27,750 nucleotides of DNA from an uncultured bacterium (GTDB taxonomy: Bacteria; Hydrogenedentota; Hydrogenedentia; Hydrogenedentales; JAEUWI01): the NCBI GenBank assembly GCA_963977445.1, contig CAXBPH010000073.1, positions 1 through 27,750 on the forward strand. Reading direction: 5' to 3'. Of the stretch, positions 1,423 to 27,254 are shown in pieces. The notes beneath the pieces are model-generated. The model was not told where the DNA came from. It saw only the letters and a program-made list of their open reading frames with translations, and searched no databases. Each line of letters begins with the position of its first letter. Position 1 is the first letter of the stretch. The translations under genes were made by a program, and so were the position numbers.

Positions 1423-1761
1423 AACCACGAATGAACACGAATTTACACGAATACGAACTGCCGTGAATTCCGCCCCAAAGGGGCCTGGCAGCCTAGCCCA
1501 GGGCAACGCCCTGGGTACGAGACAGCCATTTTCTAACAGCCCTGTAGGGGCGGCACAATGGGCAATTCCGGGCTCCGATACCGCCCTTTCAGGGCTGATA
1601 GTTATTAGGGATCCACTAACCCAGGGCGTCGCCCTGGGCTAGGCTGCGCTGGCCCTTCGGGCCGAATCCGATTGGTGGCCGGGTTGCCGTTTTTTTTAAA
1701 AATGGCTACGCTCCCAAATTCACCCAATCTAATTCGTGTTTATTCGTGTTCATTCGTGGTT
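1423..1761. repeat. Nested palindromic intergenic element (REP/MITE-like) between the two fad genes
   Basis: Outer arms 1423-1452 and 1732-1761 are reverse complements at 28/30. Middle arms about 1481-1516 / 1619-1655 (gcagcctagcccagggcaacgccctggg). Inner arms 1538-1553 / 1581-1596. Confidence 0.85.
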
Positions 1762-1792
1762 CAACTATTTATTTCCGTCTAACCGATCGCGC

Positions 1793-4192
1793 TCAATTGC
1801 GCAGGGGTTTGTTGTTCATCAGCATGTGTTGAATGCGCTCGACAGTTTTCTCGGTGCCGCAGAGGCTGAGGAAACCTTCGCATTCCAGGTCAAGCAGGTC
1901 CTGCTCGGTGATGGGCGTACCGGCGATGCGGTCGCCGCCCACCAACACGTTGATCACCTTACTGGCGATGAGGGCGTCGTGTTCGCTGGCCCAGCCATTT
2001 TGCTGCATGCTCCACACGGCGGCCTTGAAGGCGGCGGCGGGGCCGTCACCCAGGGCCTTGAGCTGGGGCGACACCGGCGGCGTATAACCCGCGACGACAA
2101 GTCCCTGACATACGGACTTGGCCTTAGCAATCTGGTGTTCGTAGTTGGGCAACACGATGTCGCTGGTGCGGAAGTAACCGAGTTCGATCACCTCAGCGCC
2201 GCTCGTGCCCACCTTTGCCTGACCAATGGCTTCAAAAGCCCGACGCAGGTAAGGGAATGGATCGACGCTCACCGAGTCGGGACAATATTCCATGGCGCGG
2301 ATGTGCATCTCTTTGCAGCCACCGCCGCCAGGCAACAGCCCTACGCCCATCTCAACGAGCCCGGCGTAGGTTTCACCGGCCAACACGACTTTGTCGGTAT
2401 GCTGACAGATTTCCACGCCACCGCCAAAGGTGTAGTGATGGGGTGCGGCGACGACAGGCTTGCGGCAATATTTCATGCGCATGTTGGTCGAATGGAGTCC
2501 GCGAACGGCCTTCTCCACGCCCGCCCAGTTTTGCTGCATGATTTCCCCAAGGATGAGGAAGATATTCGCGCCCGCGCAGAAGTGTGCCCCCTGGTTGGCG
2601 ACGATCATGCCGTCAAACTGGTCGGCTTCCAACAGGTCCACGCCCTTGTTGAGCATGGCCGTGAGGTCGGGGTCGATGGCGTTCATTTTGCAGTGGAATT
2701 CACAACAGACAATACCGTCGCCCAGGTCAATCAGGCTGGCACTGTCGTTGGTGGCGACCACGTTGGTCTTTTGGGTCTTGATGTTGGCGAGTTTAATCTC
2801 GCGGGGATTCTTGTCCACGGCCTTGTAGGTCTTGCTGGCCATGTCGAAATATTCATCGACCCCATTCTCCACCCGATAAAAGCTGGCGAAGCCCGCATCT
2901 TTCAGGGCCTTGGCTATGGGGGGCAGGTCGACGCCGATGGTGGCCATCTTTTCACAGACCGTGTCGAATCCGAGGATGTCCCACGTTTCGAAGACGCCCA
3001 CTTCCCAGGCAAAGCCCCACTTCACCGCGTTGTCGATATTAACGATGTCGTCGGCGATTTCGGGGATGCGATTCCCTGCATATTGGGCCAGGTTGGCGAA
3101 TTGCTTGAAGACAAACTGGGCACCCTTGTCGTCGCCCAGATTCATGATCTTGAGTTTGTCTTCGATGGTCTCGGCGTTGCGGACGGCACCGGTGCATTCA
3201 AAACGGGCCTTGATGGGCGGCCGGTATTCCAGGGTCTCCGGGTCGAGGCCGAGAATAATGCTCTTCCCTTTTTCGTCCCGTTCGTTCGTCTTCTTATAAA
3301 AGCCCGAGCCGCTCTTGTTGCCCAGGAGGCCTTTGGCCACCATCTTGTCGAACCACTCGGGGCCCTGCATGAGGTCCACACGTTCGTCATCGGGACAGCC
3401 GTTGCGCACATTGCCCACCACGAGATTGAGGGTGTCGAGTCCCACCAGGTCTGCCGTGCGGAAGGTGGCGGAAGAGGCATGGCCGATGGCCGGTCCCGTG
3501 AGGGCGTCCACCTCTTCCCAGCTGAGGCCGTCCTTCGTCATTTCATGCATGGTGTATTGCATGGCGAAGGTCAGGAGGCGGTTGGCCACAAAATTGGGCG
3601 TGTCCTTGGCATACACAATACCCTTGCCCAAAACGTTTTCGCAGAAGGACGCCATGGTGGCGATGACTTCGGGTTTCGTGTTGGGGCTGGGGATGATTTC
3701 CAGGAGTTTGAGGTAGCGCGGCGGGTTGAAGAAGTGGGTGCCGAGAAAGTGGGCACTCATTTCTTCGGTCATGCCGGCCGCCATGGCCTTGATGGGGATG
3801 CCGCTCGTATTGGAGCTCACGATGGTGCCCGGCGTGCGGTGTTTGGCGATATTCTCGTAGACCAGCTTCTTGATCTTCAGGTCTTCTTTCACGACCTCGA
3901 TGATCCAGTCGCAATCGGCGATCTTCGCCATGTCATCATCAAAATTTCCCGTCTCAATGCGACCAAGGACCGATTGGGTATAGATCGGTGAGGGTTTTGC
4001 TTTCATCAGGGCCGCTTTGGCCCCATCGACGATAGCGTTACGCTTCCCCTTCTTTTTCTGGTCGGCATCTGACAAGTTGGGGGTAACAATATCCAGCATG
4101 ATGCTGGGGATACCACAATTGGCAAGGTGGGCTGCAATGGCCGCACCCATGACGCCGGAGCCGAGGACGGCAACGCGTTTAATATCGCTCAT
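1793..4192 (-). CDS. 3-hydroxyacyl-CoA dehydrogenase / enoyl-CoA hydratase (FadN-type, about 799 aa)
   Basis: N-terminal Rossmann VAVLGSGVMG, SSNTSGIP, HFFNPPRY, PNFVANR; C-terminal crotonase domain (FCAGAN, GGGVE, GLLPGGGG). Start moved to ATG 4192, which has an AAGGAG RBS. Confidence 0.93.
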   Translation of the reverse strand: MSDIKRVAVLGSGVMGAAIAAHLANCGIPSIMLDIVTPNLSDADQKKKGKRNAIVDGAKAALMKAKPSPIYTQSVLGRIETGNFDDDMAKIADCDWIIEVVKEDLKIKKLVYENIAKHRTPGTIVSSNTSGIPIKAMAAGMTEEMSAHFLGTHFFNPPRYLKLLEIIPSPNTKPEVIATMASFCENVLGKGIVYAKDTPNFVANRLLTFAMQYTMHEMTKDGLSWEEVDALTGPAIGHASSATFRTADLVGLDTLNLVVGNVRNGCPDDERVDLMQGPEWFDKMVAKGLLGNKSGSGFYKKTNERDEKGKSIILGLDPETLEYRPPIKARFECTGAVRNAETIEDKLKIMNLGDDKGAQFVFKQFANLAQYAGNRIPEIADDIVNIDNAVKWGFAWEVGVFETWDILGFDTVCEKMATIGVDLPPIAKALKDAGFASFYRVENGVDEYFDMASKTYKAVDKNPREIKLANIKTQKTNVVATNDSASLIDLGDGIVCCEFHCKMNAIDPDLTAMLNKGVDLLEADQFDGMIVANQGAHFCAGANIFLILGEIMQQNWAGVEKAVRGLHSTNMRMKYCRKPVVAAPHHYTFGGGVEICQHTDKVVLAGETYAGLVEMGVGLLPGGGGCKEMHIRAMEYCPDSVSVDPFPYLRRAFEAIGQAKVGTSGAEVIELGYFRTSDIVLPNYEHQIAKAKSVCQGLVVAGYTPPVSPQLKALGDGPAAAFKAAVWSMQQNGWASEHDALIASKVINVLVGGDRIAGTPITEQDLLDLECEGFLSLCGTEKTVERIQHMLMNNKPLRN

Positions 4193-4505
4193 GGGGTTCA
4201 ATCTCCTTCGTGAGCTGCCCAAGACACACTTACTTAACGGTCGTTATACACGATTTCCCATCCTACAGAGGCGCATGGATGCGCGTCAAGGCCTGGGGAT
4301 TGGCGTCTCTCCATTGTTTCATGTCTGTATCTTAGCCTATAGACAGGGTTTATGCCTAGTAAGCGTCCCGAAACGAAATTGGATAATCAATATACGCCTG
4401 AGACCACGGTAAATTCGTCGCCAAACGGGCGGAAAACTACGATGTATGGTACGATTTACGTGTACCTAAACGTATCGTCAGGCGGGGCGCAGCAGGAGCA
4501 TTTGT

Positions 4506-4721
4506 ATGACAGCGGAAGACAAGCGGCGTATCGACCTGAGAGACCTACCGGAGTCGGCTATGGCGGACCTGAAGTCGGCTCCAATTTCGGAAGCACCTGT
4601 GGAGGATGCCGACGTAAAAGGCGGGATTCGCTACGGCATCCGGACGGGCAAGACGGGTGGCATCGCAGCGCCGGGAAGCGCGAAACGACTCACCCCTGCG
4701 GGCGGCGATTCCGGAATATGA
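4506..4721 (+). CDS. Putative RiPP precursor peptide A (double-glycine leader, 71 aa)
   Basis: AGGAG RBS at 4494-4498; leader DKRRIDLRDLP...EDADVKGG; basic Gly/Arg-rich core; paralogous to 4848-5072. Confidence 0.75.
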   Translation: MTAEDKRRIDLRDLPESAMADLKSAPISEAPVEDADVKGGIRYGIRTGKTGGIAAPGSAKRLTPAGGDSGI

Positions 4722-4759
4722 CCGCGTCGGGCGCTTAGGCAACACACCGTAAACTTCTG

Positions 4760-4768
4760 TGGTAGAAT
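4760..4768 (+). promoter_or_regulatory. Possible extended -10 promoter element upstream of peptide B
   Basis: TGGTAGAAT matches TGnTAnnnT about 80 nt before ATG 4848. Confidence 0.3.
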
Positions 4769-4847
4769 TGTAGCGTGCCTTTGCTGTGTATTCCCGACCT
4801 TCGCTTAGGATGGGCTCGTTGTACAGCAAAACTGAGGAGGATATTCC

Positions 4848-5072
4848 ATGAGTACGGACAAGCGTCGAATTTCCATTAGTGACCTGCCAGACAATGCGTC
4901 TGCTGCGTTGAAGGCGGAAGATGTACAGGATACAGAGGGCGTCACCGGTGGTGCTACCCGCATTGGCGCACGCACGAGCATTCGTGTGGGCAAACGCGCC
5001 GGCATTCGGAATATACGAAAACTGAACGGCATTCGAAAAATCGTCTCCGGGGACTCCTGGCTGCAAAAGTAA
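4848..5072 (+). CDS. Putative RiPP precursor peptide B (double-glycine leader, 74 aa)
   Basis: Strong GAGGAGG RBS at 4834-4840; leader DKRRISISDLP...DTEGVTGG; 39-aa core with 7 Arg and 4 Lys. Confidence 0.78.
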   Translation: MSTDKRRISISDLPDNASAALKAEDVQDTEGVTGGATRIGARTSIRVGKRAGIRNIRKLNGIRKIVSGDSWLQK

Positions 5073-5115
5073 CGAACCGGGCTCTCCCCGAATTTCCTGA
5101 AGAGCGGCAGCAACG

Positions 5116-6153
5116 ATGACCACCCAAAACGTCCCTATCTGGCTCGCAGGTATGCCGGAATACAATCTGCGCTTTGACGAGCGCCACGTGCCGAGTGTTC
5201 CGCTGGGCTGCCGGCAGCATGCGTTGGATGTCTTCCACAACTGTGGGGATGAAAGCAGTCTCCGCGGACGCCTGGACGCCGAGTATGTGGCGGTGCTGGA
5301 GGCACTCCTTGACGCAGGCATGCCCTTCCGTATATTGAATCTGAGCACCGCCCAATCCCCGCTGGCAGATCGCCTCCGGGCGGATGGATATCCCGAATTT
5401 CACATCGACGTCTCTGGCCAGGGCAGCACCTACACCTACCCCCGTGATCTGATGGTCTATCTCAATGACTATGAGATTGCCCTCGTTAGTGATAGCTGGC
5501 TTAAACCCGGCGTGGCCGATCTGGGTGGCGTGAATTGCTGGCCAACCTGTTGGTCTGAAGGCGGGCGGATTTTGATGTGCGACGACACGCTCGTTGTCTT
5601 TCGTCATCCCGAGAAAAAAATGGCCCGCGATCAGCCTACCCTGAATCGCCTCCGGGAACGGGGCTTGAAGGTCGTGGAGATTCCTGCGGGGATATTCTGT
5701 ACTATCGATCAAGAGGGTGCCACGACAAATTTATTCTTTGACCCCCACATTGATCGCCTCGGCGGATTGCTCCGGGGCAAGGATGGCCAGCTACACCTCA
5801 TTTTCGGACCGGGCTACCGCACCGGACCCCTGGACAATCCGCTGGACGCCATGGAATCCGCCGATTTGGTTCACCGCATCGCCGAGGCCTCGGGCATCAC
5901 ACTCCACCTGCTTCCGGACGGGGCGCTCCCCTATGGCGCCAGTCTGGTTCAATCGACCAACGGTGCCGTGGTCGTTACAGGCGGGGACCCTTCGGTGGCG
6001 GCCTTGCTGGAAATACTCCTGGGTGCCAACAACGTCGTTCCCACCAGAACGCCGATTACCCACTTCCCCATCTTTGCGAGCGCGGGAATCCACTGTCTGG
6101 TGACGGAAAGCCCCGATTTTCTGCTGTGTCCCCCAAGGGCAAAAAACTGCTGA
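5116..6153 (+). CDS. Pentein-superfamily guanidino-modifying enzyme (agmatine deiminase/peptidyl-arginine deiminase-like, or amidinotransferase)
   Basis: Ordered motifs YPRD (aa108-111), EGG (148-150), HID (211-213) and GIHC (Cys327), matching the WxRD / EGG / HID / IHC signature of AgDI/PPAD-type penteins; 345 aa. Confidence 0.75.
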   Translation: MTTQNVPIWLAGMPEYNLRFDERHVPSVPLGCRQHALDVFHNCGDESSLRGRLDAEYVAVLEALLDAGMPFRILNLSTAQSPLADRLRADGYPEFHIDVSGQGSTYTYPRDLMVYLNDYEIALVSDSWLKPGVADLGGVNCWPTCWSEGGRILMCDDTLVVFRHPEKKMARDQPTLNRLRERGLKVVEIPAGIFCTIDQEGATTNLFFDPHIDRLGGLLRGKDGQLHLIFGPGYRTGPLDNPLDAMESADLVHRIAEASGITLHLLPDGALPYGASLVQSTNGAVVVTGGDPSVAALLEILLGANNVVPTRTPITHFPIFASAGIHCLVTESPDFLLCPPRAKNC

Positions 6154-6393
6154 CGAATCGCTGTTCTTTGTATATACTGTAGGTAGGTAGGGTGCAGCTT
6201 TCAGCGCGTTGCGCAACAACATTGACTCCAAGGGACGCACCTGCAGTACGACGTGCAATGCATTTCGGTAACCCGTCTGGTTCTACTGTCACGGATTGAT
6301 ACCCGGGGCAATTCGATTGTCGGGGCTGCTTGTACAGGGCCATCGTTTCACCTCAGTGGCAGCAATCGCTGCCAGAAAAAGGAGCGTATACAC

Positions 6394-6597
6394 ATGCCCA
6401 TCAAAGACGACGCGTACAACAAAGCACGAGATATCCTCGCCAAAGCCGGCAGTAAATCGGCCAAGAAATCCCACATGAAACACACGGGTAAAAAGGGAAG
6501 TCCCGATGGTCACGGAAAATCTCTCATTGAGGAAGCCCGGGCCGATGGCGTGGATGAGGCAACCCTCGCCAAGGCGGAGAAGGCCATGGGAATCTAG
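6394..6597 (+). CDS. Small basic hypothetical protein (67 aa)
   Basis: AAGGAG RBS before ATG 6394 (MPIKDDAYNKARDILAK...); followed by a terminator. Confidence 0.7.
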   Translation: MPIKDDAYNKARDILAKAGSKSAKKSHMKHTGKKGSPDGHGKSLIEEARADGVDEATLAKAEKAMGI

Positions 6598-6646
6598 TAT
6601 TCACTTCGTCCAGGAAAACGATTTTAACATTGGGTTGAGCACCCTG

Positions 6647-6690
6647 AAGCCGACAACTCCCTCGCGCGGTGTTGTCGGCTTTCCTTTTTT
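6647..6690 (+). terminator. Intrinsic terminator
   Basis: aagccgacaac / gttgtcggctt stem followed by tcctttttt. Confidence 0.8.
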
Positions 6691-7241
6691 GGGTAGTGAC
6701 CCAATCAATCCGGGCGCAAATAACGTAGCCTTCCTATTCTTTATGCATTATGTTGCACCACGCGCGCTGAGACTATATTTCACTCGCCATTGTAATAGGA
6801 CTACACGCGTCATAAATTCATTCCATTAGTAGGGTTGCGGTTTCTCTGCTAACTTTGCTAACGTAACGCACCCTCTGATGCCATATCGGGGTTGGGACGA
6901 TGTGGTAGTTACCTGATATTTCCTGAGGTTATCGCGTAAGTAATCAACGCAGGATTCGGGCGCAAGCCTGGGGCAGCGACTTGCCAAAGGCAGGGTTTAT
7001 TCATACGCGGTAACAACGCCCCCAGGGAATCTCGACACCTTTTGACACGCCAGAACGTATTTCTGAAATTTCATTTTCGAAGGGCAGGATGCGGACAGAT
7101 GGGGCCAAAGTGCACCGTCGATATCCACAACCACGTCACGCTCCGGAACTGAAATGGATAGGGGGGCACTTCCCGCCCCCCGCTTCACGGAATCCTGGTC
7201 CAGTTAGTTTTCAGACAGCGCATGAAAGATGGTGATCACCT

Positions 7242-8393
7242 GTGCTGTATCCCGGCTTGAATGCGTACCGCGCATTCGCGTTTCTTGCTGTATTTCTTTG
7301 TCATGAGTTCAAGCTCCATGCGGGCTATCTTGGGGTGCAGGCGTTTTTCGTCCTGTCCGGATTTCTAATCACGCCCATATTGGTCGACATGAATAGAAAG
7401 CTCGCCGGAAAGACTTATTTCAGTCATTTTTACGGCCGCCGTGCCCTTCGTATTTTTCCCCTCTACTACTTCTATCTGGCCCTCGTCGGTGTAATCGGCT
7501 TCGTATTGCTCCAATTCAATGGTATCCCCGGAATGGGCCACTACGATGAGTTCGTCCGCCAGCTTCCCTGGTCTGCCCTCTTCCTGACGAACTTCTCCAG
7601 CGCCATCGGCCCCTTCGAAAACACCCGTCTCATAAGCCACTTCTGGTCGCTCGCGGTGGAAGAGCAGTTCTACCTATTCTGGCCCATTGTGATCTTCTTG
7701 GTGCCCTTTAAAAAACTACGCCCGGCCCTGCTCTTTTTCATTCTCACCGGGCCGCCCATCCGGTGGCTTATCGGTTCAGACTTTGTATCCCACAGCCTCC
7801 CCTTCCTCAACCAGGACATTGCGATGCGGGTATACGTGTTGCCCTTTTCCCATGTAGATGCCTTCGCTATCGGTGGGTACTTCGCGTTGTATGGCAAAAG
7901 TTTCCGCAGTGGGTCGGTCTGGGCATTGCTCGGATTCACCTACGTTATCGGCGTTGCCACTGCCTGGATGGCCACGGGACATTTTGTTCCCAGCGATCTC
8001 GGCTATGGCCCCTTCATGGTCGATGCGGGCAAACACATATGGGGTTACTCCCTGCTGAACTTCACCTTTGCCTATGTCCTCATACACGTCCGTGACCGGA
8101 AATTCCTACCCTGGCTCTTTGAATTCTCCCCGCTGAATTATCTGGGAAAAATCAGCTATGGGTTGTATGTGTATCACTTTGCCGTCATTCATGTGGTCAA
8201 TATCGCTTTTGCGGACCAACACGATTTAATACGCTATGCCCTTGCGCTTTTCGGGACATTTGTTATCAGCGCCGCGAGCTATGAGCTCATGGAAAAATGG
8301 TTCCTCAAATTTAAAGACGTCTACTTCAAACGCAATGACCCCGTCGATGAGAGCCCCCCTCTGGAAGCAATGAAACCCCTGGAACAGACGTAG
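7242..8393 (+). CDS. Acyltransferase family 3 (OafA/YrhL-like) membrane O-acyltransferase
   Basis: GLNAYRA, GVQAFFVLSGFLIT, RRALRIFPLY, HFWSLAVEEQFY, LGKISYGLYVYH, SYELMEK; multiple hydrophobic segments. Confidence 0.92.
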   Translation: MLYPGLNAYRAFAFLAVFLCHEFKLHAGYLGVQAFFVLSGFLITPILVDMNRKLAGKTYFSHFYGRRALRIFPLYYFYLALVGVIGFVLLQFNGIPGMGHYDEFVRQLPWSALFLTNFSSAIGPFENTRLISHFWSLAVEEQFYLFWPIVIFLVPFKKLRPALLFFILTGPPIRWLIGSDFVSHSLPFLNQDIAMRVYVLPFSHVDAFAIGGYFALYGKSFRSGSVWALLGFTYVIGVATAWMATGHFVPSDLGYGPFMVDAGKHIWGYSLLNFTFAYVLIHVRDRKFLPWLFEFSPLNYLGKISYGLYVYHFAVIHVVNIAFADQHDLIRYALALFGTFVISAASYELMEKWFLKFKDVYFKRNDPVDESPPLEAMKPLEQT

Positions 8394-12363: not shown

Positions 12364-12583
12364 CAAAGATCAGTCTTCGATTCACATCGGTAACTTGAAG
12401 CGTAGGCAAAGCCCCATATTCTAAATTCACCATTCACCATTCAAAATGCGCATGGTCGATGGACATAAGAAGGCCAATCTTGCTATTCTAAGGCCTTACC
12501 AGACGCCCTTTTATCGCATGCCGTGCGCCCGTTGGCCCACCGTCATTGCGCACAGATTCAGACGACCCGACAGGACTTCCACC

Positions 12584-14410
12584 ATGTGCAGTCATCCCGT
12601 TGACGACCCGAAACAGACTTTTATCTATAAACTGCGCCACTCCCTGGCCCATATCATGGCCCAGGCCGTGTTGGAAATCCGCCCCAAGGCCAAAATGGCC
12701 TTCGGTCCCCCCGTGGAGTTCGGCTTCTACTATGATTTCGATTTTGGCGACCAGCCCATCGGCGAACGCGACCTGGAACAAATCGAAAATGGCATGCGCC
12801 GTATCATCAAGGAAAAGCAGCCCTTCGAGCAGTCCTATAAGACCCTCGACGAGGCCACTGCCCTCCTCACCGGCACGGACCAGAACTATAAGATCGAGTA
12901 TGCTCAGGAACTCGTGGAATCCGGGCGCGCGGGCGATGAAGGCCTCGGATTTTATGTGAACGGCCCCTTCATCGACATGTGCGAAGGTCCCCATCTGGAG
13001 CACACGGGCGAAGTGCCCAAGGCCTGCTTCAAGCTCGACCGCATCTCGGGCAGCTATTGGCGTGGCGATGAGAAAAACCCCATGCTCACCCGCATCTATG
13101 GCCTCGCCTTTGAGTCCAAGGGCGGCCTGAAGGAATTCATCGAGCGCCGTCAACTCGCCATGGAGCGGGATCACCGCAAACTGGGCGAAGAGCTCGACCT
13201 CTTCTTTATGGACGCCGAGGTCGGTGTGGGCCTGCCCATGTGGATGCCCAACGGTGCCGTCGTTCGCGATGAACTCGAATCCTGGGCCCGGGAAGTGGAA
13301 TTCAAAGCGGGCTTCAAACGGGTCAGTACCCCCGCCATCACCCGCAAAGAGCTCTACATCAAATCGGGCCACCTGCCCTACTATGCGGAAGACATGTATC
13401 CCCCCATGCAGGTGGATGAAAACGACGAATATTACCTCCGCCCCATGAACTGCCCCCACCACCACAAAATCTATGCCGCACGGCCCCGCTCCTACCGCGA
13501 GCTGCCCCTGCGCCTGGCGGAATATGGCAACACCTACCGCTATGAAAAACACGGCTCCCTGGCGGGACTGCTCCGCGTTCGCGCCATGTGCATGAACGAC
13601 GCCCACATCTATTGCACCCCCGAGCAGGTGGAGCAGGAATTCCGCTCGGTCATGGCCATGTATGACCTCTACTACAACCACCTCCGCATGGGCAGCTTCC
13701 GCGTCCGCCTTTCCCTCCACGATCCCGCTTCGGAAAAGTTCGTGGGTAAGACCGACGAATGGCTCAAGACCGAAGCCATCGTCCGCGAGGTGCTCAACAA
13801 CCTCGGCGTCGACTATGAAGAAGAAAAGGGCGAAGCCGCCTTCTACGGACCCAAAATCGACATCCAGGTGAAAAACCTCATGGGCCGCGAAGAGACCGTG
13901 TCCACCTGCCAGCTCGACTTCGTCGTCGCCGAACGCTTCGGCCTCGAATACGTCGACTCCGACGGCGAACGCAAGGTGCCCTTCATCATCCACCGGGCCC
14001 CCCTGAGCACCCACGAACGCATGATCAGCTTCCTCATTGAACTCTACGGTGGTGCCTTCCCCACCTGGATGGCTCCCCTCCAGGTCCAGCTCATCCCTGT
14101 GAACGACGACGTGGCCGACTACGCCGAAGAGATCGCCGACGAGCTCCGCGACAACCTCTTCCGCGCCGAAATCGACTACAGCAACGAGAGTTTTAATAAG
14201 AAGATCCGCAACGCCATCACCCACAAGATCCCCAACCTGTGGATCATCGGTGGCAAAGAAAAAGAAAACCGCACCATCACCTGGCGTCGCTATTGCAGCA
14301 AGCAGCAGAAGACGGTAGACATCGGCGACGCCCACATGGCCCTCGAGCGCCTGCGCGGTGAGCGGATGATGGATAACTTTGAAGATGTGGAGTTGCCGCT
14401 CGGGGAGTAG
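12584..14410 (+). CDS. thrS: Threonine--tRNA ligase (no N-terminal TGS domain)
   Basis: HSLAH editing motif, DMCEGPH, RDHRKLG, RPMNCPHH, YRYE, AFYGPKID, QLDF, IIHRA; anticodon-binding domain. Start at ATG 12584 with an AGGA RBS. Confidence 0.97.
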   Translation: MCSHPVDDPKQTFIYKLRHSLAHIMAQAVLEIRPKAKMAFGPPVEFGFYYDFDFGDQPIGERDLEQIENGMRRIIKEKQPFEQSYKTLDEATALLTGTDQNYKIEYAQELVESGRAGDEGLGFYVNGPFIDMCEGPHLEHTGEVPKACFKLDRISGSYWRGDEKNPMLTRIYGLAFESKGGLKEFIERRQLAMERDHRKLGEELDLFFMDAEVGVGLPMWMPNGAVVRDELESWAREVEFKAGFKRVSTPAITRKELYIKSGHLPYYAEDMYPPMQVDENDEYYLRPMNCPHHHKIYAARPRSYRELPLRLAEYGNTYRYEKHGSLAGLLRVRAMCMNDAHIYCTPEQVEQEFRSVMAMYDLYYNHLRMGSFRVRLSLHDPASEKFVGKTDEWLKTEAIVREVLNNLGVDYEEEKGEAAFYGPKIDIQVKNLMGREETVSTCQLDFVVAERFGLEYVDSDGERKVPFIIHRAPLSTHERMISFLIELYGGAFPTWMAPLQVQLIPVNDDVADYAEEIADELRDNLFRAEIDYSNESFNKKIRNAITHKIPNLWIIGGKEKENRTITWRRYCSKQQKTVDIGDAHMALERLRGERMMDNFEDVELPLGE

Positions 14411-14442
14411 GGAACGAATTAGAAGACAGTGTGCATACAACG

Positions 14443-14469
14443 AAGCCCGGCCATGCGCCGGGCTTTTTT
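14443..14469 (+). terminator. Intrinsic terminator of thrS
   Basis: aagcccggc-catgc-gccgggctt followed by a T-run. Confidence 0.85.
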
Positions 14470-14485
14470 CTTTGCGGGGACCAGA

Positions 14486-14850
14486 ACCACGAATGAACGT
14501 AGAGCAGCCGATGGCCGCAACGGAAAACAAATTCTAAACCACGAAGATACGAAGAGCACGAAGGGAAGAAAACGTTGGGCGTGTCCAACAGGGGGTTGAC
14601 CGTTCCCACGCTCTGCTTGGCGATTTGGCGAGAGGCCTACGCACACACCAAGGCCCACTCTATCCGCGCGAAGTCCATTCCGAAGCAGAGCTTCGAGGCA
14701 TGCATTCCCAAGCAGAGCTTGGGAACGAGAGGTAATAGGGTCGTGCCGCGCGATCACGGGGAACGAGGGAAGACGTAACGCGTTGGGACGCATTACGGCG
14801 CGCCCGACCAATCGCACCCCAATTCGTGACCAGTTGCGTTCATTCGTGGT
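14486..14850. repeat. Nested palindromic element (same outer arms as 1423-1761) enclosing a REP-like doublet
   Basis: accacgaatgaacg (14486-14499) has a perfect reverse complement at 14837-14850; inner arms cgttcccacgctctgcttgg (14601-14620) / ccaagcagagcttgggaacg (14708-14727). Confidence 0.7.
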
Positions 14851-23941: not shown

Positions 23942-25558
23942 ATGAGCCAACTCTCACAGATAGTGCTGAACGCCCAAAATGGTGACACCAATGCCTTTAA
24001 TGCATTGGTCGCTCGCTTTGGTGGCGCGGCCCATGAGCGTGCTTTTTCGTGGCTGGGTGACCACCATCGGGCAGAAGAAGTGGTGCAAGAGGCCTTCCTG
24101 GAAGCGGCGCTCAAGATTCACCAGCTCCAGTCCCCCCTCGCCTTTTCTTCCTGGTTCAAGCGGATTCTGGTAAAGCAGTGTGACCGGGTTACGCGCAAAA
24201 AGTCCCTACCCACGGTGGAGTTGTTTCACGGGACCGATGTCGCCAATAGCCAGGAAACGCCCGCTACCTTGCTGGACGCCAAGGTATCGCAAGGCCAGTT
24301 GCAGCAGGCACTTCAGAAGCTCACGACTGCCCAGCGCGCCCTGATTCATGCGGCCTATTGGGAAAACACGCCCCAACGAGAAATCGCCAAAAACCTGGGC
24401 GTACCGCTCACAACCGTCAAAAAACGACTCTATGGTGCTCGGCAAAAGCTGGCCCAACTGGTTACGGCGCTCCAGACACCCGACGAGACCTCTACCGCAG
24501 AGCACACCGCATTTTCGACCGAGACACAGATTTTTATGGCCGCGTGGCACGGCCAGCGGTCCAAAGTGCATGCCTTGCTGAATGCCCAGCCGGAACTCCT
24601 CCAGGCGCGGAACAGCGAAGGCCTTTCGCTCTTACTCTTTGCCGCCCATGCGGCCCATTACAGCCGACAGGATGAAATCACCACCGCCCTGCTGAATGCG
24701 GGTGCCTTGCCCGACTATTTTGCTGCCGCCGCACTTGGGCACACCAATACGGTCTTACGTGCCTTGCTGGCCACGGCCGTCGACACCGTTGGGCCCTGGC
24801 AGCGGACGGCGCTCCATTGGGCCATCTGTGGGGGCCACGCTACCCTGGTAAGTGCGCTCCTCGACCGGGGTGCCGACCCGAACTGCACCGACCACTGGGG
24901 CTGCACGGCCGTTCATCTCGCGGTAGACTTTGGCCACGAGGCGCTCTTTGGCCTCTTGCTGGCCCGTGGCGGCGACCCACGGCGAATCATGAACAACGGC
25001 AAGAATCTGCTCCATCTGGCGGCCTGCAACGGCGACAACGGACTCATCGACCGGGTCCGACATGCGGGCCTTCCCCTGGATATTTTCACCGCGGCGGCCC
25101 TGGGCCACGTGGGGCTGGCCGACACGCTGCTCTGTCGGGACCCGTCGGTTATCGGCCAAAAACTCCGCATCGGCGCAACCCCCTTACAAATTGCCGCCGA
25201 ACGGGGTCACACGACCATGGCCCAATACCTGCTTGAGCGGGGCGCCACCCTCGACCCCATCAGCGCGATAGCCCTGAACGATGAGACGGCACTCTTTGAA
25301 TTGCTGGAGCGTCAACCCCGGGCCATCGATCGCAATGCGGGTTCCTTTGGCTTTACCCCACTCCACGCCGCCTCTGTCCGCGGGCGGGATGACCTCGTCC
25401 AACAATTATTGTTTCATGGCGCGGATGTAAATCGCAGTGACCGCATGTTTCGCAAAACCCCCATGGAGGAGGCCCTGTTTTTCGGAAAAGAAAGCGCGGC
25501 CCGGCTCCTCTTCCGCCACGGTGGCCGTCTCGCGGGCCCGATTATCTTACCCCGCTGA
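23942..25558 (+). CDS. ECF sigma-70 factor with C-terminal ankyrin-repeat extension
   Basis: Sigma2 region (AQNGDTNAFNALV, AEEVVQEAFL, FSSWFKRI); sigma4 region (EIAKNLGVPLTTVKKRLYGARQKL); ankyrin motifs TALHWA, GADPN, TAVHLA, TPLQIAA, TPLHAA, GADVN. Confidence 0.9.
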   Translation: MSQLSQIVLNAQNGDTNAFNALVARFGGAAHERAFSWLGDHHRAEEVVQEAFLEAALKIHQLQSPLAFSSWFKRILVKQCDRVTRKKSLPTVELFHGTDVANSQETPATLLDAKVSQGQLQQALQKLTTAQRALIHAAYWENTPQREIAKNLGVPLTTVKKRLYGARQKLAQLVTALQTPDETSTAEHTAFSTETQIFMAAWHGQRSKVHALLNAQPELLQARNSEGLSLLLFAAHAAHYSRQDEITTALLNAGALPDYFAAAALGHTNTVLRALLATAVDTVGPWQRTALHWAICGGHATLVSALLDRGADPNCTDHWGCTAVHLAVDFGHEALFGLLLARGGDPRRIMNNGKNLLHLAACNGDNGLIDRVRHAGLPLDIFTAAALGHVGLADTLLCRDPSVIGQKLRIGATPLQIAAERGHTTMAQYLLERGATLDPISAIALNDETALFELLERQPRAIDRNAGSFGFTPLHAASVRGRDDLVQQLLFHGADVNRSDRMFRKTPMEEALFFGKESAARLLFRHGGRLAGPIILPR

Positions 25559-25793
25559 CGCCCTGACAGGCCGACTACAGTTGAAAACACATCATTTTGC
25601 CCCATAACGTACGAACAAAATAATCGATTCCACTTGATAGAAATCGCCGACAGGCACTATACTGCTTCGCCGGTAACCTTTTTGTCCCCGCTGCAGGTTT
25701 TCTATGCGGTCCCTCCGTTTTTTTTCGGGACCCTGCATGTCCAGATACTACAACGTTTTTCCAAACGAACCCATTAAAATAAGGAGAATATCC

Positions 25794-27254
25794 ATGGCTG
25801 TTGCAACAACAGATACCATCCCCGACATCGATCACGACCTGCCCTTTAAGGTCGCCGATATGAGCCTCGCCGACTGGGGCCGCAAAGAACTCGACATCGC
25901 CGAGATCGAAATGCCCGGCCTGGTCGCCATCCGCGATCGCTACGCCGCCGACAAGCCCCTCAAGGGTGCTGTTATCATGGGCTCCCTCCACATGACCATC
26001 CAGACGGCCGTGTTGATTGAAACCCTTGTGGCCCTTGGCGCCGAAGTGCGCTGGGCAAGCTGCAACATCTACTCCACCCAGGATCACGCCGCTGCCGCCA
26101 TCGCCAAGACCGGCGTGCCGGTTTTCGCCTGGAAGGGCGAGTCCCTGGAAGAATACTGGTGGTGCACCTACCAAGCCATGCTCTTTTCCGATGGCCGCAC
26201 GCTCAACATGATCGTGGACGACGGCGGTGACGCCACCCTCCTCATCCACCGCGGTTATGACTTCGAAGAGCACTTCACCGCCCACGGCACGCTCCCCGAA
26301 ATCTCCACGGACAACGAAGAAATTCGCGTCGTCGACACGCTCCTCCACAAGGTTCATGGTGAAGACCCGAACCGCTGGCACAAGACGATTGAAAACTGGA
26401 TCGGCGTTTCGGAAGAAACCACCACCGGTGTGCACCGTCTTTACCAGATGATGGAAAAGGGCGAACTTCGCACCCGCGCCATGAACGTGAACGACTCGGT
26501 CACCAAGTCCAAGTTCGACAACCTCTATGGCTGCCGCGAATCCCTCGCTGACGGCATCAAGCGCGCCACCGACGTCATGATCGCCGGTAAAGTCGTGGTA
26601 GTTGCTGGTTATGGCGACGTGGGTAAGGGTTGTGCCGACGCCATGAAGGGCCTCGGTGCCCGCGTTATGGTCACGGAAATTGACCCCATCTGCGCCTTGC
26701 AGGCGTGCATGGAAGGCTATGAAGTTCTTCCCATGGTTGACGCTGCACCCCAGGGTGACATCTTCGTCACCACGACGGGCTGCGCCGACGTCATCACCCT
26801 CGACAACATGAAGGCGATGAAGAACAACGCCATCGTCTGTAACATCGGTCACTTCGATTCCGAAATTCAGATCGCCGCCCTCGAGAACATGCCCGGCATC
26901 GTCGAAATGGAAATCAAGCCCCAGGTCGACATGTTCACCTTCCCCGACGGCAAGTCCATCATCGTGCTCGCCAAGGGCCGCCTGGTGAACCTGGGTTGTG
27001 CCACGGGCCACCCCTCCTTCGTCATGTCCAACTCCTTCGCCAACCAGACCCTGGCGCAGATTGCGCTCTTCACCGAGACCGAGAAATACGAAATCGGCAA
27101 GGTCTACACCCTGCCCAAGTTGCTCGACGAAGAAGTGGCCCGCCTCCACCTGGAGAAGCTCGGTGCCCGTCTCGACGTCCTCACCGACGCCCAGTCCAAG
27201 TACATGAGCATCCCCAAAGAAGGCCCCTACAAGCCCGAACACTACCGCTACTAG
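25794..27254 (+). CDS. ahcY: Adenosylhomocysteinase (SAH hydrolase)
   Basis: [71 protein letters not shown] end; AAGGAG RBS before ATG 25794. Confidence 0.98.

Follow-up and report, generated by a model that had tools for sequence, protein, structure and literature searches.

In a 27,750-nt stretch of DNA from an uncultured bacterium of the phylum Hydrogenedentota (contig CAXBPH010000073.1 of assembly GCA_963977445.1, positions 1 to 27,750 of the forward strand; hereafter the window), we confirmed as real three closely packed open reading frames (ORFs), all on the plus strand. Two of them, which we call pepA and pepB, encode small peptides with a leader ending in a double glycine (GG), and the third encodes an enzyme of 345 amino acids that belongs to an unannotated family of predicted pentein fold. 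We propose, with a probability of about 0.5, that the three genes form a minimal cassette like those of peptides that are made by the ribosome and then modified post-translationally (RiPPs), in which a cytoplasmic pentein modifies arginine residues in the core of the peptides. The proposal starts from what is observed, namely the genes and their conservation, their adjacency in other genomes, and the fold and conserved residue set of the enzyme.

The gene pepA (4506-4721, 71 aa) is preceded by the Shine-Dalgarno sequence AGGAG (4494..4498) and pepB (4848-5072, 74 aa) by GAGGAGG (4834..4840), both read from the sequence and both separated from the start codon by a 7-nt spacer. The enzyme gene (5116..6153) starts 43 nt past the pepB stop codon, behind a weak ribosome-binding site (GAAGAG). 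The initial annotation of this DNA, made without database searches, had described two tandem small ORFs with strong ribosome-binding sites followed after 43 nt by a 345-aa ORF, and this layout is correct. A scan of the window placed no terminator-like site between pepB and the enzyme gene, and the intergenic RNA between the cassette genes is of ordinary stability (z 0.6 to 1.3). The sigma-70 promoter scan returned nothing upstream of pepA; sigma-54 promoter-like sites occur in the window at chance level (15 against 14.9 expected), none of them upstream of pepA, and no Rfam family was found in the window.

The two peptides share leader elements. That of pepA (4506..4625, of which 4527-4625 match the leader pattern given below) is 40 aa long, has a net charge of -4 and ends in VKGG, and that of pepB (4848..4952) is 35 aa long, has a net charge of -3 and ends in VTGG. 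Both contain DKRRI-x-[LI]-x-DLP (DKRRIDLRDLP in pepA and DKRRISISDLP in pepB) and have A-x-A-x-LK and V-x-GG in common. The pepA core (4626..4721 with the stop codon) has 31 residues, a charge of +4 and 3 Arg, while the pepB core (4953..5072 with the stop codon) has 39 residues, a charge of +10, 7 Arg, four Ile-Arg dipeptides and the C-terminal sequence SWLQK, and is kept in five full-length relatives. Thus the common leader and the switch from acidic to basic sequence exactly at GG, both pointed out in the initial annotation, are indeed present in the two peptides. They are paralogues (BLASTP E 5e-9). The pepA core is shorter than that of pepB and lacks the C-terminal SW[LI][KQ]K found in the relatives of the latter, and the only relatives found for pepA are pepB-type peptides; it may be a diverging copy.

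When species-representative genomes were scanned, 27 pattern matches yielded four related loci (L001 to L004). L001 and L002 come from metagenome-assembled genomes (MAGs) of Hydrogenedentota whose enzymes show 63% identity, and in each a single gene of the pepB type precedes the enzyme gene by 24-36 nt; across the window, L001 and L002 the gap between the peptide gene and the enzyme gene, always on the same strand, is 24-43 nt. L003 comes from a deltaproteobacterial MAG (35% enzyme identity). Its contig stops at the 5′ end of the enzyme gene, and 22 nt downstream of that gene, on the opposite strand, there is a GG-leader ORF (MARIKIKDLDPKINISKEEMKKVFGG...). L004, from Thermodesulfovibrio (also 35% enzyme identity), is a recognisable RiPP cluster by itself. 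Two GG-leader ORFs (MAKIKIRDLPKNKKINKKDMKNIQGG... and MAKIRIKDLPRGQEITKKDMKMVKGG...) are found there about 230-460 nt upstream of the enzyme gene in divergent orientation. The enzyme gene abuts one that matches TIGR03975, a 'RiPP maturation radical SAM C-methyltransferase' (SAM, S-adenosylmethionine; 613 bits, cutoff 282), after which comes a radical SAM/SPASM enzyme whose best match is the PapB family, at 157 bits and below the cutoff. A third precursor (5644-5886, minus strand), with the leader MAKIKIKDLPK and a core rich in Tyr, Ser and Cys, stands directly upstream of the radical SAM/SPASM gene, which is followed by genes for two SAM-dependent methyltransferases (6034-6711 and 6708-7769, both on the minus strand).

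Counting the window, peptide and enzyme are adjacent in five of five loci from three phyla. The initial annotation had proposed an analysis of the genome neighbourhoods of homologues, and here the answer is favourable: small GG-leader ORFs adjoin the enzyme homologue in all four fetched loci. The flanks are otherwise unrelated: the window has genes of fatty-acid oxidation on the upstream side and an acyltransferase gene on the downstream side, and L001 has other genes. No other modifying enzyme is conserved beside the Hydrogenedentota copies, in keeping with the first description of the locus, which saw none nearby.

This adjacency bears on another explanation, in which the enzyme acts on a small molecule (free arginine, agmatine or a derivative) and the adjoining ORFs encode unmodified bacteriocin-like peptides or other small proteins. 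Indeed, most of the characterised penteins among the structural matches listed below act on small molecules, the enzyme model has no extra domain for peptide recognition, and no exporter or peptidase was found in the window. However, such an enzyme would have to lie beside GG-leader ORFs in five of five loci of three phyla with differing flanks, and in L004 between genes of a radical-SAM RiPP cluster, while in the window no gene of arginine or polyamine metabolism is nearby. We consider this explanation unlikely, but one to be taken seriously.

The peptides are conserved beyond the window. Of 257 candidates compared with a profile built from four of them, eight protein clusters reached E<=0.01: the two of the window itself, a truncated form of 57 aa and five full-length relatives. 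The latter have in common a leader of the form [KR][KR]IS[IV]xDLP ... V/I-K/T-GG and a core made of R-x-G and G-I-R units that ends in SW[LI][KQ]K. The GG at the boundary between leader and core is invariant in nine of nine aligned peptides, and two Arg positions directly after it are invariant in seven of seven; in pepA and pepB a hydrophobic residue stands at position -4 (VKGG, VTGG). The pattern [KR][IV]x[ILV]xDL[PD]-(8-30)-GG occurs eight times in the 63,399 bp examined, in every case in these small ORFs, and zero times in 100 shuffled sets; as it was devised after the sequences had been seen, these counts show specificity within the data and are not an independent test.

Comparison of the L001 and L002 peptide genes gave 19 synonymous and 22 non-synonymous differing codons out of 81. 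The core (13 synonymous and 9 non-synonymous, out of 43) is better conserved than the leader (6 and 13, out of 37), and its 13:9 split is, judged from these codons, what a coding sequence shows when it is under selection. Arginine is enriched in the cores of pepB and of the L001 and L002 peptides, with 7-8 Arg per 39-43 residues (binomial P 0.006-0.012 at 6.5% Arg); ten large ORFs of the window contain 5.1%. Pfam, NCBIfam, PADLOC and PHROGs scans of pepA and pepB gave no match. A search of the Atlas with pepB returned scores of 0.84-0.86, all below the meaningful level; the type-A lantibiotic precursor cluster that ranks 14th among them is a lead only.

The enzyme carries, in this order, the motifs YPRD (residues 108-111), EGG (148-150), HID (211-213) and GIHC (324-327). 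The initial annotation had taken them for the catalytic residues of penteins in their usual order, and the conservation agrees with this, since relatives throughout the family keep the Asp/His/Asp/Cys set. In 137 relatives with a length of 300-420 aa, taken from 166 proteins, Asp111 (codon 5446..5448), the predicted guanidinium-binding acid of the YPRD motif, is kept in 134. In the H-x-D motif His211-Ile212-Asp213 (codons 5746..5754), the predicted general acid/base His211 is kept in 136 and the predicted second acid Asp213 in all 137, and Cys327 of GIHC (6094..6096), the predicted nucleophile, in 133. The surrounding positions are similarly constant (Pro109 in 132/137, Arg110 in 133, Gly149 in 132 and Gly150 in 135), and Glu148 is found in 104, with Gln in 18. 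In the alignment A3 (131 sequences), which had been pre-filtered for Asp111, His211 and Cys327, only the invariance of Asp213 and Gly150 is therefore informative. The residue order and the H-x-D spacing are those of the Medicago agmatine iminohydrolase, whose catalytic residues are given as Asp94, His224, Asp226 and Cys366 in the available text of the source (PMC6447857).

We also observed that position 326, next to the predicted nucleophile, divides the family: of the 137 relatives, 79 have Arg and 51 have His there, and His is present in every enzyme with a known peptide context (the window and L001 to L004).

The family is large and nameless. The window enzyme has no match in Pfam or NCBIfam at E<=1 and none in PADLOC or PHROGs; neither the pentein models PF04371, PF02274, PF03068 and PF19420 nor any arginase family matched it. 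In a set of 5.8 billion proteins we found 18 enzyme clusters including the window's own, none with a Pfam domain, the sole name among them being a 'hypothetical protein' of a Candidatus Hydrogenedentes MAG, and a search of the same set with profile A3 added one protein (P0163) and no names. Run exhaustively against 1.84 billion representatives, phmmer produced 200 matches at E<=1e-3, 144 at E<=1e-10 and 17 at E<=1e-30; the family comprises about 200 clusters at 50% identity, none of them annotated. When 25 distant relatives were compared with Pfam at E<=0.1, no pentein family was matched and two unrelated matches appeared. No match came from tblastn searches of plasmids with the window enzyme, or of plasmids and phages with the distant relative P0040, and a 29-residue piece around Cys327 matched nothing in the PDB at E<=10. 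PDB sequence matches to disulfide isomerase, designed helical repeats and HAUS6, obtained by phmmer and with profiles A1 and A3, were rejected as spurious.

Structure prediction goes further than sequence here. An AlphaFold model built from 18 relatives reached a pLDDT of 80.3, with the segment around Cys327 poorly defined, and a second model built from 131 relatives reached a pLDDT of 94.7 and a pTM of 0.93. In the model the 345 residues make up a single propeller, with no additional recognition domain. When the better model was compared with the PDB by Foldseek, 77 matches were obtained at E<=0.001, and all 36 matches listed were penteins: agmatine deiminases/iminohydrolases, putative deiminases of the Porphyromonas type, dimethylarginine dimethylaminohydrolases (DDAH), amidinotransferases (SxtG, AGAT, HsvA) and the arginine dihydrolase ArgZ. 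The best match among those listed had an E-value of 1.8e-7 and a query template-modelling score (TM) of 0.54; target-normalised TM values went up to 0.64, at sequence identities of 8-16%. The matches listed for the shallower first model were likewise all penteins, and the Atlas's independent model of the enzyme matched DDAH_eukar, PAD_porph and arginine deiminase (ADI) clusters at TM 0.55-0.61. A fold search of the ORF at 5116-6153 against penteins, proposed in the initial annotation, thus has a clear outcome, with PDB and Atlas in agreement. The predicted structure of the enzyme is the five-bladed alpha/beta propeller of penteins, which makes the enzyme, on these models, an unannotated branch of the superfamily that has diverged very far.

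Two findings would have spoken against the initial proposal, an enzyme without the pentein fold and homologues that never lie near such peptides; given the predicted fold and the co-occurrence in four of four loci, the opposite was found on both counts.

In the Atlas comparison, row 4 is a cluster of 87 hypothetical proteins, 96% of them viral (Uroviricota), with a TM of 0.55 to the enzyme model; therefore some phages may carry unannotated penteins.

Our inference from these data on substrate and reaction, on the sequence of steps and on cleavage at GG is as follows. The precursors would be made with a cationic core, in which Arg, Gly and Ile abound, masked by an acidic N-terminal leader ending in Gly-Gly. 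As it lacks a signal peptide, the enzyme should be cytoplasmic, and it would act on the Arg side chains of the core prior to export. Cys327 would attack the guanidino carbon of Arg as the nucleophile, with His211 serving as acid/base and Asp111 and Asp213 holding the guanidinium group. The likeliest reaction would be hydrolytic deimination to citrulline (+0.984 Da per site), which we put first since the closest folds are those of single-step hydrolases; complete hydrolysis, giving ornithine, and the transfer of an amidino group would be less likely. Removal of the GG leader and export would then be carried out by a transporter encoded elsewhere.

The fold searches are also where the two other reactions find their arguments. 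A peptidyl-arginine dihydrolase would convert core Arg to ornithine (-42.02 Da) and would be the pentein-fold counterpart of the arginase-fold peptide arginases. ArgZ, an arginine dihydrolase, is itself a pentein and matches the model at a target-normalised TM of 0.61-0.63 (6jv1, 6jv0), AstB was present in the fold search with the first model, and an ornithine product would leave the peptide cationic. Conversion of Arg to ornithine is, moreover, an established RiPP modification according to the available text of two papers (PMC12703449, PMC10028609). However, the best fold matches are single-step deiminases and DDAH, and no sequence link to AstB was seen, so that we give a dihydrolase little credence.

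In the other reaction an amidinotransferase would take an amidino group from free arginine, or from one peptide Arg, and pass it to Lys side chains or to the new N-terminus of the core, giving a homoarginine-type product (+42.02 Da). The amidinotransferases SxtG, AGAT, StrB1 and HsvA are among the Foldseek matches (E 7e-6 to 1e-4) and have the same Cys/His/Asp set, and the cores keep conserved Lys residues (GKR; C-terminal KK or QK). Nevertheless, hydrolases (agmatine deiminases and DDAH) outrank the amidinotransferases in both fold searches, although by about 1-2 orders of E-value only, and it is Arg, not Lys, that is enriched and invariant beside GG. Transfer to the core therefore seems improbable to us, and deimination is the reaction we carry forward.

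Several points weigh against the cassette as we propose it. Neither the fold nor the sequence data separate a hydrolase from an amidinotransferase, and it is by order, spacing and invariance, rather than by superposition, that the four residues are equated with the catalytic set of penteins. Searches of Pfam, NCBIfam and the PDB, with the single sequence and two profiles, gave no link at the sequence level to a characterised pentein, and hhalign of the family profile against Escherichia coli AstB gave a probability of 0.4%. The model contains no extra domain with which the enzyme could bind a leader, and it may be an exporter, and not the pentein, that recognises the leader motif. The peptides of the window match none of the double-glycine leader models TIGR01847, TIGR04149 and NF047798, and no C39/ABC exporter (ABC, ATP-binding cassette) was found among its large ORFs. 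As for the substrate, the initial annotation had called both precursors Arg-rich, which stands for pepB, with its 7 Arg, but falls for pepA, whose 3 Arg in 31 residues are not a significant enrichment (P 0.33). The precursor cores of L004 are not Arg-rich either, one having no Arg, one two and one a single Arg; Arg-richness is thus a feature of the Hydrogenedentota peptides and not of all associated peptides. Finally, the genomic context covers five loci of a family of about 200 clusters.

The leaders of L003 and L004 gave weak matches to general GG-leader models (E 8e-4 to 0.06, all below the cutoff), and the Arg-rich peptides of L001 and L002 matched no GG-leader model. Candidate export genes are found in L001 and L002 about 4 kb upstream of the peptide-enzyme pair, where the C-terminal part of an ABC transporter ATPase (L001 5-589, L002 1-300, both on the plus strand) is followed by a gene for a HlyD-family protein (L001 593-1789, L002 307-1503, both on the plus strand). 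The ATPase was read without its N-terminal part, where a peptidase domain would sit, and together with the HlyD-family protein could be the exporter.

These genes, together with the residue conservation, also bear on the idea that the pentein was recruited as the leader peptidase, its Cys-His-Asp centre cutting after Gly-Gly in place of a C39 domain. The window, with no C39/ABC transporter, would fit this idea. Against it, the presumed guanidinium-holding residues Asp111 and Asp213 are as conserved as the Cys and the His, and a peptidase would not need them; an ABC transporter and HlyD are at hand in L001 and L002. We know of no pentein that acts as a peptidase, though we made no search for one. 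We regard this idea as very improbable, and continue to favour a pentein that edits Arg and a leader that is removed by a transporter.

Other GG-leader ORFs surround the pair in L001 and L002. In L002, three small minus-strand ORFs (1687-1917, 2027-2230 and 2277-2447) lie between the HlyD gene and a sigma-54 activator, and have a different type of GG leader (MSKINNEDLNEKK...EQVKGG, MSTIKNNDLNVEE...AVKGG) and repetitive cores rich in Lys, Gly and Asp; weak tblastn matches to them are found in L001 at about 2100-2415. With these extra ORFs, the Hydrogenedentota locus appears as an island of peptides with GG leaders. A GG-leader ORF of a fourth kind (…KKRVIRLDDLDSLDDVVGGSQGKLLFGEE…; L001 5081-5284, L002 5101-5307, both on the minus strand) is divergent from the Arg-rich peptide gene and is followed by a gene for a Cys-rich 379-aa protein (L001 3774-4913, L002 3793-4884, both on the minus strand) with no Pfam or NCBIfam match. 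The two, both of which are missing from the window, may be a separate peptide-modifying pair. In L001, two sites resembling sigma-54 promoters, each with a single mismatch, were seen at 2540-2555 and 5325-5340 (minus strand), just upstream of minus-strand GG-leader ORFs and near the sigma-54 activator gene (2690-4144, minus strand). However, the nine such sites in L001 are not above chance (6.1 expected), and none precedes the Arg-rich peptide gene.

Directly 3′ of the enzyme gene, the window contains a small ORF (6253-6597, plus strand) with a Lys-rich C-terminal part (…KSAKKSHMKHTGKKGSPDGHGK…), for which we found no Pfam or NCBIfam match and noticed no counterpart in L001. In both the window (7242-8393, plus strand) and L001 (7596-8891, plus strand), a membrane protein matching Acyl_transf_3 is encoded downstream of the enzyme gene, at a distance of 1-1.5 kb. 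We considered this protein as a member of the system and rejected it, as the two copies are not orthologous (BLASTP E 0.2); their presence in both places is probably a coincidence.

Elsewhere in the window, a 538-aa protein (23942-25558, plus strand) joins N-terminal regions 2 and 4 of a sigma-70 factor of the extracytoplasmic function type to several C-terminal ankyrin repeats, an unusual fusion. Three long ORFs, at 1736-3991 (plus strand), 12488-14530 (minus strand) and 25575-27242 (minus strand), run antisense to the genes for a FadB-like protein, threonyl-tRNA synthetase and S-adenosylhomocysteine hydrolase, respectively. A scan of the last two ORFs gave no family matches, and these long antisense ORFs, in a window of 57% G+C, are probably not genes.

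We searched open-access papers and bioRxiv and found no published cluster-encoded pentein that acts on a ribosomal peptide, nor, in the text that these sources made available, a paper on a characterised RiPP from Hydrogenedentota; what the searches for such a pentein did bring up concerned citrulassin, pheganomycin, peptide arginases or unrelated subjects. It is conceivable, although we hold this more tentatively than the cassette itself, that a new class of RiPPs has its first example in this locus, in which a cluster-encoded enzyme of a hitherto unrecognised pentein family (about 200 clusters, no annotation) edits several Arg in linear GG-leader peptides to citrulline, ornithine or an amidino-transfer product, and that the same family provides tailoring enzymes of general use to other RiPP clusters in several phyla, among them the radical-SAM clusters of Thermodesulfovibrio. 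If the enzyme does act on the peptides encoded beside it, a function would be assigned to a family of about 200 clusters that is unnamed in Pfam, NCBIfam, PADLOC and PHROGs, and a two-gene system, easy to test in E. coli, would become usable to install citrulline or ornithine at several sites of a peptide.

A close precedent in chemistry is that of the citrulassins, lasso peptides in which a single Arg is deiminated to citrulline by a peptidylarginine deiminase (PAD) of the pentein superfamily with a Cys/His/Asp/Asp centre (bioRxiv 10.1101/2020.07.16.207027, from the part of the text available). In the same text this PAD lies outside the citrulassin cluster, as the initial annotation had stated. 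It belongs to PF03068, is homologous to the human PADs, and is described there as encoded far from the cluster and never in RiPP operons. The window enzyme, in contrast, matches no PAD model, has a single domain of 345 aa and is encoded 43 nt after a precursor gene, and the peptide is predicted to be linear, with a GG leader and many Arg. According to the accessible part of a preprint of May 2026, citrulline-containing RiPPs are still traced to the citrulassin-type PAD route only.

In structure, the best matches are the agmatine deiminases and the Porphyromonas-type PADs of PF04371 (6b10, 6nic, 1zbr and 2ewo; E 2e-7 to 5e-7, TM 0.49-0.54), which have the same order Asp ... His-x-Asp ... Cys. 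However, the identity in the structural alignments is 12-16%, no match was obtained to a hidden Markov model of that family or, in profile searches, to its PDB sequences, and the PF04371 enzymes, unlike that of the window, are not linked to precursor peptides. On the side of the peptides, the GG-leader bacteriocins and RiPPs (TIGR01847, TIGR04149, leader_Chryseo) have, as here, a leader that ends in GG, a hydrophobic residue at -4 and a cationic core, but in the peptides of the window, L001 and L002 the leader is longer and has a more acidic character.

An organization similar to our proposal is that of the OspR-type peptide arginases (of landornamide and others), in which, as far as the accessible accounts go, Arg in a ribosomal precursor is edited by a cluster-encoded enzyme, often at several sites. 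These enzymes are described as having an arginase fold and giving ornithine and urea, whereas the window enzyme has a predicted pentein fold. We therefore view the system as RiPP-type with a putative new family of tailoring enzymes, the pentein chemistry itself being a prediction. In the searched literature, to the extent of its available text, Arg editing in ribosomal natural products takes two forms, a distant PF03068 PAD that makes citrulline and arginase-fold enzymes that make ornithine; the cassette described here, if our reading is true, would be the first genetically self-contained modification of peptide Arg by the pentein superfamily.

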